64,000 bases of DNA, taken from NCBI GenBank assembly GCA_003354025.1, contig PIVU01000002.1, forward strand, positions 8,004 to 72,003, in the 5' to 3' direction. Made by a program: the position numbers and the translations under genes. Every line of letters starts with the position of its first letter. Positions within the stretch are counted from its first letter, which is position 1. Under the pieces are notes generated by a model. That model had not been told where the DNA came from and searched no databases. It saw only the letters and a list, made by a program, of their open reading frames with translations. The DNA is from Nitrospirota bacterium (GTDB taxonomy: Bacteria; Nitrospirota; Thermodesulfovibrionia; UBA6902). Shown here one piece after another: positions 32,596-37,126 of this stretch.

Positions 32596-33764
32596 CCCCT
32601 GCTCCCCCCATGCAGCTTGAGCCGGTAATAGCCCATCTTAGAATCCCCTGCATCATTATTGCAGACCGCAACCTCCAGACCATCCAGTTGAATAAAACCT
32701 GCCTCTAAGCGATCCGGATATTGACTGCCAATACGTTTGAAACGGTTTAGACATACGTGCTCGATACCGTCCAGTTTCATTAATGCCTCAATGACATCGC
32801 TGGCATACAGGTCTTCGCCAAACCCAAACCGCCCGGGTTCGAAAAATCCTCCAGAACCATGACCAAGCGCTTGGGCGGTAGCATGGTGCATCTCGGATTG
32901 AAAAAAATTGGATTTCACACTGACAGAGATGGACATGTAAATGCCAATATATATAGGGTCCTGCAGCACGACTTCCTGGCCGGCCATCCGAAATGCATCA
33001 ATATATGTCCTTAGTACCATACGCACAGTGGGCAATTGCAAGGCGTCCATTTGTAGTGAAGTGATACCGACACGTTTATTAAATTTGATTATTTCATCCT
33101 TCAGATCTACCGGACATGCTTTATCCAGATCATTATTTTTACCCCGTGTAATCAAGGTCAGACGGATGGTAAACCATGAACCGCTCCACTCACTCCATGC
33201 ATGAGCGTTCACAACGAGTGGATGTTCGCGCAGGCGGACCGCATAGTCATCGGTCGTAACCATGCGCTTCTGGGTATGAATTTCCCGCGGTCCAGCACGT
33301 CTCGCCTGCTCCATAGCATGCGGATGGATTCGCCAGTAATCTTCAAGCACTTTTATGGCTACATTGCCTGCCAATTTACCCTCAATTTGATTCTTAGACT
33401 GGGCCACAGCCACAGCATCGTAACCTATGAAATCCAATAACTGGCGTACTGTTTCCGGCCTTCTTGCCGTCTCCAGATAAGCTTCGGCAGCAACCCTGTC
33501 CGCCATATCGGATAGATGATCCAGAATCGTGGCCATCACCTCAATCAAAACGACTTCAAGATCAGCCGGAGTCCAGCGTTTACGGTCCGGAAAGCGCGCC
33601 GCAAGCTCCTCCATCATAAACATTCGGAACCCATCGTAATCACGAACCCGCCAATCGAAATCATCGCCCGGCTCGGCCAGGGACGCCGGCAAATGCACCT
33701 CACGAACACCGCAGTCCGGGCAGGTTCCGTGAAAATTCAGTTCAACCTGTGGCGAATCAGCCAT
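32592..33764 (-). CDS. Baseplate J-like protein (gp6/Afp11 family)
   Basis: J-family pattern (LEVVLIEVMATILDHLSDMADRVAAEAYLETA). Probable start is MADSPQV. The ORF-track start 33824 overlaps gp25. Confidence 0.65.
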   Translation of the reverse strand: MADSPQVELNFHGTCPDCGVREVHLPASLAEPGDDFDWRVRDYDGFRMFMMEELAARFPDRKRWTPADLEVVLIEVMATILDHLSDMADRVAAEAYLETARRPETVRQLLDFIGYDAVAVAQSKNQIEGKLAGNVAIKVLEDYWRIHPHAMEQARRAGPREIHTQKRMVTTDDYAVRLREHPLVVNAHAWSEWSGSWFTIRLTLITRGKNNDLDKACPVDLKDEIIKFNKRVGITSLQMDALQLPTVRMVLRTYIDAFRMAGQEVVLQDPIYIGIYMSISVSVKSNFFQSEMHHATAQALGHGSGGFFEPGRFGFGEDLYASDVIEALMKLDGIEHVCLNRFKRIGSQYPDRLEAGFIQLDGLEVAVCNNDAGDSKMGYYRLKLHGGSRG

Positions 33765-34161
33765 TATTATCCCCTGGGGAACCGACTGGGATTCTATGTG
33801 ATTCCTTCCTGTTGATAGCAGCAAGAATGTATGAAATATGAATGATCAGTTTCTCCCCTTCATTACTGACATCTACCTCAAGGGTCCTGGGATCAACCTC
33901 ACCGTGTAATGCTTCGGCAAGGGACACGTTTAATCGTTTGAGTGTGGTATTCCGCAAAGCAGTATTATTGGGTTCGAAAACCAGCCTGCGCACGCCAACA
34001 CCAAACTCCGGACGAAATACCCGCTCCTTAGGACTGGTAAACAACACCTGTTCGATTTGCTCGCGCACATGATCAGAACGCGAACTGGTCTTCGGTCCAT
34101 CATCGCCGACAGAAAACGGGAATTTCAGATACTGAGATTCGCTCAAGTCCAGCATACACAC
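33757..34161 (-). CDS. gp25/GPW-like baseplate wedge protein
   Basis: 134 aa. Motif DHVREQIEQVLFTSPKERVFRPEFGVGVRRLVFEPNN is typical of GPW/gp25. Confidence 0.75.
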   Translation of the reverse strand: MCMLDLSESQYLKFPFSVGDDGPKTSSRSDHVREQIEQVLFTSPKERVFRPEFGVGVRRLVFEPNNTALRNTTLKRLNVSLAEALHGEVDPRTLEVDVSNEGEKLIIHISYILAAINRKESHRIPVGSPGDNNG

Positions 34162-34165
34162 CTCC

Positions 34166-34987
34166 TCATATGGTCTTCACCGTTGTAGAGAGAGTGCTAA
34201 TCTCTCCCTGTGGTATAGGTGGCGAAGTTGGTCCACCCACAACCGGCGCCACAGTATGAATATGAGTAGCAAACTTACTCAGGAAACTTTGGCCCTTAAT
34301 AACAGGTTCTCCTCCTTCATCACCAAGGTGTACTTGACCACCCCTGACGATAATTTTCGGTGATTCTGCTGTAATGCCTGCTGCAGTCATTTCAATAATA
34401 TTGCCATTCGAATCTTCAACTTTTGTTCCGGAGCTGTTCATAGTCATGATGTTCCCATTCGCATCTTCTACAATAATCTCATTATTTTCTGCATCCATTC
34501 TTAGAACTGCACCGGATGTATCTGTCAAAGATATCGTGCCGTTTTTATCTATTATCATTTCAGCATCTGCGGGATGAAATAAGCGAAACTGTTCTTCACC
34601 TTCTTCATCATCAAACTGTAGAATATGGCCAGACTTAGTCTGGAAAAGGCGTGTAGTAGGTTCCTCCCTGGCTGCGTCTTCAGGCGGATCGCCTTCCTGC
34701 TGCCAGAAGGTACCAACCCAGATCGGTCGATGTATATCACCCTCCTCAAACTCCACCCAGATCTGTGCATCAATTTCCGGAATCATAAACATGCCCTGTT
34801 GCCTGGCACCACCATAGGGCAGACAGGGAAGCGCCCAATCGGAGTCCTGATCGGCCAGCACGGATGGAATACGTAATTTGAGCCGGCCGCGTTTTTGCGG
34901 ATCCTTATTGTCGCTCACGATACCCCGGTACTTCCCGTAGCGTTTTTCGTCTATTTGTCTGGCTATACGGATCAGTGTTTCTTCCAT
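34166..34987 (-). CDS. gpV/gp5-like spike (OB-fold + beta-helical repeats)
   Basis: YRGIVSDNKDPQKRGRLKLRIPSVL OB-fold signature of baseplate assembly protein V/VgrG. C-terminal repeats (NGTISLTD...NGNIMTMNSSG...NGNIIEMTAAG). Confidence 0.75.
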   Translation of the reverse strand: MEETLIRIARQIDEKRYGKYRGIVSDNKDPQKRGRLKLRIPSVLADQDSDWALPCLPYGGARQQGMFMIPEIDAQIWVEFEEGDIHRPIWVGTFWQQEGDPPEDAAREEPTTRLFQTKSGHILQFDDEEGEEQFRLFHPADAEMIIDKNGTISLTDTSGAVLRMDAENNEIIVEDANGNIMTMNSSGTKVEDSNGNIIEMTAAGITAESPKIIVRGGQVHLGDEGGEPVIKGQSFLSKFATHIHTVAPVVGGPTSPPIPQGEISTLSTTVKTI

Positions 34988-36111: not shown

Positions 36112-36416
36112 CGTCCCCCTCCGGGTTCTGCTGAACGAGGAATCAGGATTGTTTCACCTACGTAATTACTGAGCATAAGATCCGCCCCGAAAATAATCTG
36201 AGGATTAGCGTCCAGGATGCGCCACCATCTGCTAGTGTTGTTGTAAAAATGAAGTGAAAGCAGATCCAGCCGGTCACCTTCTTTTACCGTGTACTCGAGC
36301 ACGCCCGCAGTCGGACCGATCTCTCTTGGACGAATACCTCCAAACACCGGCTCTTTACCGTTCTCACCGGCAAATTTTCTGGCACTTTCATACCTTGACC
36401 TCTTTTCAATCATCAT
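36108..36416 (-). CDS. LysM-domain tail protein X-like
   Basis: 102 aa. YTVKEGDRLDLLSLHFYNNTSRWWRILDANPQI...LIP matches the tail X/LysM pattern. Confidence 0.7.
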   Translation of the reverse strand: MMIEKRSRYESARKFAGENGKEPVFGGIRPREIGPTAGVLEYTVKEGDRLDLLSLHFYNNTSRWWRILDANPQIIFGADLMLSNYVGETILIPRSAEPGGGR

Positions 36417-36448
36417 TCACCCCTTAAATACTAATGAATGTTTCAACA

Positions 36449-37126
36449 CTAGCCTCCCGAATCCTGGTAGCCCTGCAGCGATCCAGACGCCTGCTTGGCG
36501 GACGCAAATACTCGCTTGATCTCGGGTGTATAAAATTCATTATCGCTTTGAATAATTTGCAGAGTCAGCGTAGCTTCGGCCCGGTAAGGCAGAAGGCTGG
36601 GCAGATATTCCTTTACATCGAACTGCAACTGGGTCATTAGCACAGGCAAAATCTGATCGCCCCAATGAAATTCCAGTACCGATGGATAGGGCTGCGACTG
36701 ACCAGCCGATCCTCCCTCCCCAAGCGCTGCCAGGGTAGTCGCTCCATCCGGTGCCTGCAACTTTGGCTCGACCATGCAGTACAGGATATCCAGTTCAGGC
36801 TGGACTCCTTTTAACTGAGCTTCTTTATCGCCAGCATTCATTCGGTCCGTGGCATCGAGCAATATCTTCACCGTGAAGCTCTCTGCCTTGACAGTAGCCC
36901 CTTGCGTTACACGGGGTACTTCCTTTGGTTTGTGAAAGTCTCGACCACCCGTGGTCGTCTGGCCTTCACCAAATTTAATTTCCACAGATCGTGTGCGTGT
37001 GATGCTGGATGGATTGAATTCAAAATGTAGTTCAAGCGGGTTATCCGTATTGGTATACTCACACAAAATGCCACGTGTGACCTTCAGATTTGAATAGTTA
37101 CCGCTAGGAACCTGGTTTCCGTTCAT
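36449..37126 (-). CDS. Tail-tube-like / tube-initiator protein
   Basis: 225 aa. Beta-rich. Sits between the ATPase and LysM/hub genes, where tube-initiator/terminator proteins occur in eCIS and R-pyocins. Weak assignment. Confidence 0.45.
   Translation of the reverse strand: MNGNQVPSGNYSNLKVTRGILCEYTNTDNPLELHFEFNPSSITRTRSVEIKFGEGQTTTGGRDFHKPKEVPRVTQGATVKAESFTVKILLDATDRMNAGDKEAQLKGVQPELDILYCMVEPKLQAPDGATTLAALGEGGSAGQSQPYPSVLEFHWGDQILPVLMTQLQFDVKEYLPSLLPYRAEATLTLQIIQSDNEFYTPEIKRVFASAKQASGSLQGYQDSGG

Follow-up and report, generated by a model that had tools for sequence, protein, structure and literature searches.

The subject here is a block of five tightly packed minus-strand genes at positions 33757-37126 of a 64,000-nucleotide stretch of DNA (the "window") from a Nitrospirota bacterium (assembly GCA_003354025.1, contig PIVU01000002.1, positions 8,004 to 72,003). 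The block lies within a long operon that runs from ~45.4 to ~17.5 kb. The operon is an ordinary member of a widespread and already catalogued class of phage-tail-like injectors. With good confidence, we read it as an extracellular contractile injection system (eCIS) that is complete, belongs to lineage II and falls among those with DUF6519/eBAP5 fibers. The five genes are then its baseplate core, where a C-terminal histidine apex ("HxH") built into a stand-alone spike replaces the PAAR tip protein. An initial annotation of the same DNA had instead proposed a mosaic or evolutionary intermediate between tailocins and eCIS, pointing to a split hub and spike, a P2-like gene order and a missing PAAR gene beside an eCIS cap and ATPase. 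Its gene descriptions have held up for the most part; its interpretation has not.

Gene families were assigned by profile searches against Pfam, NCBIfam/TIGRFAM and PHROGs, and structures through PDB sequence searches, AlphaFold and Foldseek. All operon genes discussed below lie on the minus strand. The hub (34990-36111, 373 amino acids (aa)) has no Pfam match and covers positions 6-344 of the model NF033848 (VgrG_rel). The spike (34166-34987, 273 aa; PF04717 Phage_base_V, 1.5e-24) covers positions 376-512 of the same model. In PDB sequences, the hub matches residues ~15-342, and the spike residues ~376-550, of the fused spikes 7aef_q (AlgoCIS), 9rce_F and 7b5h_AJ (Anabaena tCIS); in 7aef_q, the part matched by the spike spans residues ~376-546. 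Because the two proteins align to successive parts of fused spikes, the split into two genes is real, and the hub is the counterpart of the N-terminal half of fused Afp8/VgrG-like spikes.

Structure prediction gives the same picture. A profile of 39 hub homologues finds contractile injection system (CIS) spikes exclusively in the PDB, at residues ~16-340 of 9rce, 7aef, 7b5h and 9gtr, with E-values down to 7e-21. The AlphaFold model of the hub, built with database homologues, has a predicted local distance difference test (pLDDT) score of 73 and a predicted template-modeling (pTM) score of 0.74, and adopts the gp27/gpD/gp44 fold. Its best superpositions are with the gp27-like half of the tCIS spike and that of the AlgoCIS spike (TM 0.73); after these come Streptomyces Cis8, Pvc8, Mu gp44, the R2 pyocin hub and T4 gp27. 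The spike model has a pLDDT of 85, rising above 90 across the OB fold and the beta-strand repeats, and Foldseek matches it to CIS spikes, the R2 pyocin spike, phi92 gp138 and P2 gpV (4s37, 3pqi and 3qr8 among the entries). The N-terminal OB fold and beta-helix of a gpV-type spike are thus present by PF04717, AlphaFold and Foldseek alike. The initial annotation had rightly called this protein gpV-like, without knowing of the histidine motif at its other end.

That motif, H242-I-H244 (34256-34264 by translation), sits 30 residues before the end of the spike, in an apex region of residues 225-273 (34169-34315, also by translation); the chain ends in ...GGEPVIKGQSFLSKFATHIHTVAPVVGGPTSPPIPQGEISTLSTTVKTI. 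The two histidines are near-invariant in 42 spike homologues, down to 27% identity, and are the sole invariant columns across 41 diverse apex segments. Related loci were recovered with an eight-sequence alignment, giving 81 locus records that represent 80 distinct loci (the Desulfopila locus occurs twice), and the spikes of all 81 records carry the HxH. When a profile of the apex segment is searched against the PDB, the top match is P2 gpV (3qr7/3qr8), followed by the PhiTE spike and phi92 gp138. The alignment places THIHTVAPVVGGPTSPP of the spike on THKHPGDSGGTTGSPL of gpV, with the HxH on His197/His199. Recovering gpV takes the family profile; the single 74-residue apex gave no matches in the PDB with phmmer.

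In the literature, an HxH at the C-terminus is the hallmark of an apex domain that binds iron, and a spike lacking it bears a PAAR tip (10.1101/2023.02.25.529910; PMC12407873). Judged by its sequence, the spike of the window would have a built-in histidine tip of the iron-cage type, like that of P2 gpV, with iron as the presumed ligand; this is part of the reading that we hold with good confidence. Because it carries its own HxH apex, such a spike would go without a separate PAAR protein. P2 gpV, PA0616 of the R2 pyocin and phi92 gp138 are likewise stand-alone spikes, with OB fold, beta-helix and HxH apex, beside a separate hub gene. Similarity to gpV is, however, negligible outside the HxH, and the OB fold and beta-helix found here are nearest to those of VgrG-type spikes from CIS and type VI secretion systems (T6SS). 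Some 30 residues follow the HxH in this spike, versus 12 in gpV. Further, the rest of the operon in which this spike sits is that of an eCIS, unlike the phage and pyocin settings of P2/pyocin-type spikes.

The absence of a detectable PAAR gene, which the initial annotation had noted from inspection of the open reading frames (ORFs), was then confirmed for the operon and its surroundings by three kinds of search. No main gene matched PAAR_motif, DUF4150 or DUF4280 (Pfam, E<=0.01). No PAAR family appeared at E<=0.1 in 150 alternative ORFs from 15-46 kb, a set that holds all minus-strand stop-to-stop frames of at least 40 aa together with the 62 longest from the plus strand. Finally, a hidden Markov model (HMM) built from PAAR-like genes of sister loci, described next, found nothing in six-frame ORFs of at least 30 aa over the whole 64-kb window (best E=0.69). 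Beyond the window, 150 non-core ORFs from ~55 related loci gave no match to a PAAR family.

The sister loci serve as a natural control. In 150 spike representatives (taken at the 50% identity level), a C-terminal HxH is found in 84; the other 66 include some fragments, many blunt beta-helix ends and a few fused PAAR motifs. Where spikes without the HxH were examined, an extra gene directly followed the spike in four of four cases, and the three complete copies encode 106-113 aa. One of these, 106 aa long and inserted between spike and gp25 in a metagenome locus (L083), matches DUF4280 at 6e-4 and PAAR_motif at 6e-3. The inserted gene beside P0270 matches DUF4280 weakly. The inserted genes of L083 and a second locus (L084) are mutually homologous (E=1e-17), and their HMM also finds a truncated copy in a third (L082). 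That HMM detects no such gene in any HxH-type locus, and in a distant locus of this type (L085, 29% spike identity) the spike is followed directly by gp25. The four homologues without the HxH thus carry an extra gene, PAAR/DUF4280-like where it could be scored, and the HxH loci have none, which supports the application of the published HxH/PAAR rule here.

The metagenome locus L083 is especially close to the window in its layout. Its order is sheath, tube, PF12322 protein, variable gene, cap, ATPase, small ORF, CIS_tube, LysM-like protein, hub, spike and then gp25. The difference lies at the tip: its spike has 203 aa, lacks the HxH and is accompanied by the PAAR/DUF4280-like gene, whereas the spike of the window has 273 aa and the HxH, with no such gene beside it. 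We lean, with rather more belief than doubt, toward the view that two interchangeable tips alternate between sister clades of one fixed eCIS architecture. The first tip, as in the window and the 80 distinct loci, would be a spike longer by ~70 residues with a fused HxH apex. The second would be a short, blunt spike together with a separate PAAR/DUF4280-like gene of 106-113 aa. Other ends occur in homologous stand-alone spikes (P0210, P0211, P0249; P0140, P0144, P0166, P0213, P0269), with a "P(A/V)ARVGD" PAAR motif fused to the C-terminus of some, while others end in "C-x-F-x-G-A-P-H".

It is, of course, conceivable that a PAAR tip exists all the same, being either too divergent for the profiles or supplied in trans from a gene at another place in the genome. 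The PAAR-like proteins of related systems score weakly in Pfam (6e-4 to 6e-3), so that the sensitivity of the searches is limited. The view is also restricted to 64 kb of the genome; in the flanks of the operon, the Pfam scan speaks for 25 of the 91 matching families, and the local HMM for DUF4280-like tips only. Against this stand the tight packing, which leaves no room for a further gene between spike, gp25 and J, and the silence of the sister-lineage HMM both in the six-frame ORFs of the window and in all HxH-type loci. The non-core ORFs of the related loci, as said, hold no PAAR family either, and the place where a PAAR protein would bind is filled by the conserved HxH apex. A hidden PAAR tip is for these reasons improbable, although it survives better than the other alternatives to a PAAR-less eCIS.

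The architecture that surrounds this tip is fixed over a wide range of organisms. Desulfopila sp. IMCC35006 has its genes in the same order, and the full arrangement, cap and ATPase included, is found again in each of the 80 distinct genome loci recovered, a set drawn from more than 10 phyla or classes. Hosts include Pirellulales, Burkholderiales, Gammaproteobacteria, Zetaproteobacteria, Acidobacteriota, Nitrospina, Nitrosomonas marina, Corallococcus, Cellvibrio, Halomonas and Vibrio. The gene set is complete in 56 of the 81 locus records, and the remainder lose genes to contig ends only. The divergence of the ATPase and cap follows that of hub and spike across loci (Spearman 0.65-0.74), a correlation as strong as that of the baseplate genes among themselves. 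Because cap and ATPase diverge in step with hub and spike, this argues for all four being one co-inherited unit. At least one such locus has probably been reported before: the supplements of Geller 2021 credit Nitrosomonas marina Nm22 with an eCIS operon, and our record from that strain (L043) is likely the same operon, though the scaffold names differ.

These facts weigh heavily on the proposal of a mosaic, in which a P2/R-pyocin baseplate module would have recombined with an eCIS module of trunk, cap and ATPase, or in which the locus would be a true intermediate between tailocin and eCIS. Its attraction is plain. As in P2 and the R2 pyocin, hub and spike have a gene each; the spike ends in a gpV-type HxH apex, and the Foldseek matches include P2 gpV along with spike and hub of the R2 pyocin. 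However, the only sequence matches of hub and spike are to halves of fused CIS/T6SS spikes; neither P2 gpD nor the pyocin hub is matched, and gp138 appears at E>=0.1 only. The sheath is far nearer to CIS sheaths than to those of pyocins. An order fixed in 80 distinct loci and the co-divergence of cap and ATPase with hub and spike count against a patchwork as well, and no break in guanine-plus-cytosine (GC) content separates the supposed modules (0.44-0.51 over 24-44 kb, and 0.43 at 22-24 kb). A split hub and spike has, moreover, already been described for eCIS subtypes IIa-IIc. Both forms of the mosaic are thus very improbable.

The gene order itself had been described as that of P2 and the R-pyocins. 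The order U-X-D-V-W-J-I-H is that of canonical afp5-afp13 and is common to the maps of Afp, P2 and the R2 pyocin. An order shared by all three reflects shared ancestry and is no signature of a tailocin. As for the order V-W-J-I-H read from the window, it stands as an order, with the corrections that "J" is two genes (410 and 1341 aa) and that "H" is a 1357-aa DUF6519 fiber.

Weakest of all is the idea of a defective prophage tail or bacteriocin-like tailocin, which the contractile-tail gene set and public annotations such as "phage tail protein" and "phage late control D" might suggest, and to which we give next to no credence in view of the full set of eCIS markers (Pvc16_N cap, AAA+ ATPase with winged-helix domain, CIS_tube, DUF6519 fiber, DUF4157/eCIS_core), the occurrence as a stand-alone island in many phyla, and the lack of any capsid, portal, terminase or integrase family in the genes of 7-46 kb or among 25 of the 91 families matched in the flanks. 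Packaging families and TssJLM were absent over the same range, the genes of 7-46 kb being scanned individually. Nor does the locus resemble an R-type pyocin or P2 tailocin in its sheath, which matches the pyocin sheath at 1e-8 versus 1e-82 for CIS sheaths, or in having a cap and an ATPase.

Placement within the eCIS rests on published schemes. All eight core components listed by Chen et al. in 2019 (tube, sheath, LysM, hub and spike, gp25, J, ATPase and cap) are found in one minus-strand operon. In their lineage II, afp8 is split into gp27 and gp5 ORFs within the IIa, IIb and IIc subtypes; afp10, the PAAR gene, is missing from IIb only, and two copies of afp11 occur in IIa and IIc (PMC6899500). 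The window shares with these subtypes both the split afp8, as hub and spike in adjacent ORFs, and a cap and ATPase away from the operon end. Placement in a known eCIS subtype with the same order, which the initial annotation had named as counting against its own reading, is essentially reached. DUF6519 has been described as eBAP5, a fiber anchor of eCIS, in a study that does not discuss the spike tip (PMC12923769, 2026); a fiber with an N-terminal DUF6519 stands beside the baseplate genes here. The hosts of that group are mainly Actinobacteriota in the published set, whereas those recovered here are mostly Pseudomonadota, Desulfobacterota, Acidobacteriota and others.

Comparison with individual systems is instructive. 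Afp and PVC (lineage Ia) have the same functional order of tube-like protein, LysM, hub/spike, gp25, J, I and fiber, and share the cap, the ATPase and the concept of a toxin cargo. Unlike the window, they have a fused hub-spike (Afp8/Pvc8) tipped by a PAAR protein (Afp10/Pvc10), and they carry afp14-16 at the operon end. The sheath of the window is closest to the Cis2 sheaths of the clade IIa CIS of Halogeometricum borinquense and of the Streptomyces CIS. Streptomyces Cis8, however, is a fused spike (9gtr, 643 aa), unlike the split pair here, and the Halogeometricum system, which is membrane-bound and T6SS-like, has a cis10 homologue, whereas the window has no PAAR gene.

Several points count against the assignment and the apex, and should be set out together. 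The E-values that connect the apex to gpV are marginal (0.1-1), even though the three specific matches are all apex domains. The AlphaFold model, computed as a monomer, has low confidence in the apex (pLDDT ~55-65). The PAAR and DUF4280 matches in the sister loci fall under the curated thresholds of Pfam. Subtype traits are mixed, with two afp11-like genes as in IIa and IIc, yet no afp10, as in IIb. For IIb in particular, the absence of afp10 agrees and a single afp11 does not, there being two TIGR02243-like proteins (410 aa and 1341 aa), which the HMMs of Chen et al. might count otherwise. Lastly, the machine may act in the cytoplasm or anchored to a membrane, as in Streptomyces and Halogeometricum, instead of outside the cell; the long fiber with its eBAP5 anchor is only suggestive of extracellular action.

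The remaining genes of the operon fit a complete injector. At its head stands a NusG paralogue (44856-45371, 171 aa), followed by the contractile sheath (42374-44764, 796 aa; PF04984 and PF17482). Among PDB sequences, its best matches are 9ezm, presumably the Cis2 sheath of the clade IIa Halogeometricum system described in PMC11566945, and the Streptomyces Cis2 sheaths, at ~1e-82; Pvc2 is matched at 7e-53, and the sheath of the R2 pyocin at 1e-8. Lineage II sheaths with solved structures have 519-574 aa and that of Desulfopila has 647 aa, against the 796 aa found here, and Pfam sheath domains are matched solely from residue ~504 on. From that late start, a large variable insertion in the middle of the sheath, presumably a surface domain, can be deduced.

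Next come the gp19-type tube protein (41852-42361, 169 aa; PF06841, 2.5e-39), to which the AlgoCIS and tCIS tubes are closest among PDB sequences, and a hub-assembly-like T4_baseplate protein rich in cysteine motifs (41003-41839, 278 aa; PF12322, 1.4e-8; phrog_150 "baseplate hub"). The latter, with motifs of the CxxC type, comes after the tube gene in all recovered loci with contigs that extend far enough upstream. After it comes a Pro/Ser-rich, hypervariable protein without family match (39783-41006, 407 aa). Related loci have a gene of 300-590 aa at its position, with a sequence so little conserved that tblastn detects it in few relatives. The position suggests a tape-measure, or length-determining, candidate; lineage II eCIS are said to lack afp14 (PMC6899500).

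In mid-operon, where the initial annotation had placed them, lie the cap or tail terminator of the Afp16/Pvc16 type (38668-39786, 372 aa; PF14065 Pvc16_N, 2.7e-21) and the AAA+ ATPase of the Afp15 type with its winged-helix domain (37340-38671, 443 aa; PF00004, 6e-26; PF22977). A small conserved ORF without family match follows (37123-37392, 89 aa as listed). It is kept in many related loci at 30-79% identity, and probably starts at the ATG at 37353, which would give ~75 aa; the Desulfopila homologue has 77 aa. The five-gene block begins with a tube-fold protein at the position of Afp5/7 or the P2 gpU tube initiator (36449-37126, 225 aa; PF19266 CIS_tube, 2.7e-7). Before the hub, as the initial annotation had said, is the LysM/tail-X-like gene (36108-36416, 102 aa), with a weak match to PF05489 (2.4e-4) and others to NF008399 LysM (3.3e-4) and phrog_7145 (1e-8). 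For both the tube-fold and the LysM proteins, PDB sequence searches were uninformative. Hub and spike come next, and the block closes with the gp25/gpW-like sheath initiator (33757-34161, 134 aa; PF04965, 1.1e-12).

Downstream of the block are the wedge and fiber genes. The first J-like wedge protein (32592-33824, 410 aa as listed) matches the C-terminal part of TIGR02243 (1.5e-17) and phrog_219; its true start is most likely an ATG at 33764, which gives an 8-nt overlap with the gp25 stop. The second, large J-like protein (28570-32595, 1341 aa) matches TIGR02243 at 4.9e-46, as well as PF04865. Both J-like proteins match the C-terminal part of TIGR02243, and the first has an insertion in some relatives (473 aa in Vibrio sp. 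EA2, L079). A P2 gpI-like baseplate or fiber-adaptor protein (26330-28573, 747 aa; PF09684 Tail_P2_I, 1.1e-5) is directly followed by the tail fiber gene (22257-26330, 1357 aa), whose N-terminal DUF6519 (eBAP5) anchor occupies residues 1-161 (PF20129, 1.4e-14). The same type of fiber follows the I-like gene in related loci.

Beyond the fiber lies an eCIS_core (DUF4157) protein (17522-21847, 1441 aa; PF13699, 5.8e-22), a candidate cargo or toxin. Homologues of it follow the fiber gene in several related loci, and it is probably the cargo. Several other candidate cargo or accessory genes stand in the same minus-strand stretch downstream of the fiber gene (9833-21847): a TPR protein (16806-17522), two ORFs without assigned role (15642-16647), and four proteins that resemble secreted enzymes, namely an M6-like peptidase with P-domains (13155-15446), a papain-like C1 protease (12164-13048), a metallo-beta-lactamase-fold protein (10607-12112) and a PG_binding_1 protein (9833-10570).

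Upstream of the NusG paralogue are two sigma-54 enhancer-binding response regulators (46125-47543 and 47939-49312) and a histidine kinase (49382-50980). A sigma-54-like -24/-12 element, TGGCATTCTTATTGCT, is found at 45880-45895 on the minus strand; the promoter scan returned 3 sites where 2.7 are expected by chance, which is not significant. The GC content is 0.44-0.51 over 24-44 kb (~0.50 at 32-42 kb), falling to 0.43 only at the fiber end (22-24 kb), and is 0.39-0.44 in the housekeeping flanks (1-10 kb and 44-56 kb). Because the GC content of the operon is above that of its flanks, and because its proteins are 50-90% identical to those of loci in many phyla, the operon points to horizontal acquisition.

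A picture of the working machine can be drawn from these parts. A trimer of the 373-aa hub would be seated on the tube-initiator and LysM proteins, and would carry a separate trimer of the 273-aa spike. At the tip, the HxH motifs of the three chains would form a histidine cage of the P2 gpV type, presumed to be loaded with iron, that sharpens the point. In spikes of the gpV type, six histidines of the trimer coordinate a buried Fe ion. Because this cage would form the tip, a PAAR cone would be neither needed nor encoded. The wedges, made of gp25, the two J-like proteins and the I-like protein, would hold the DUF6519 fiber, the Pvc16-like cap would terminate the trunk of sheath and tube, and the ATPase might aid assembly or the loading of cargo. 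Contraction would then drive spike and tube into the target cell, delivering a cargo that is probably the neighboring DUF4157 protein.

What follows for the family is, first, that a false lead is removed. The locus is not a chimera of tailocin and eCIS, but a standard representative of a very widespread and horizontally mobile eCIS type. The lack of PAAR now has a concrete and testable reason, the HxH apex built into the stand-alone spike. In the literature searched, no paper links PAAR-less eCIS to an apex domain, a survey of CIS in metagenomes mentions neither subtypes nor PAAR, and a fused apex as the explanation for such systems, together with sister loci that carry a PAAR gene, appears to be undescribed. 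For annotation, pipelines that expect a fused VgrG with a PAAR protein will rate such loci as incomplete. For the engineering of eCIS, PAAR-based loading of cargo is unavailable here, and the spike gene alone defines the tip. If two interchangeable tips do alternate between sister clades, this would explain the eCIS subtype without afp10 that was noted in 2019 and left unexplained. It would also mean that effectors are not loaded through PAAR in these systems, so that loading of the DUF4157 type, or loading in the lumen, would be required.

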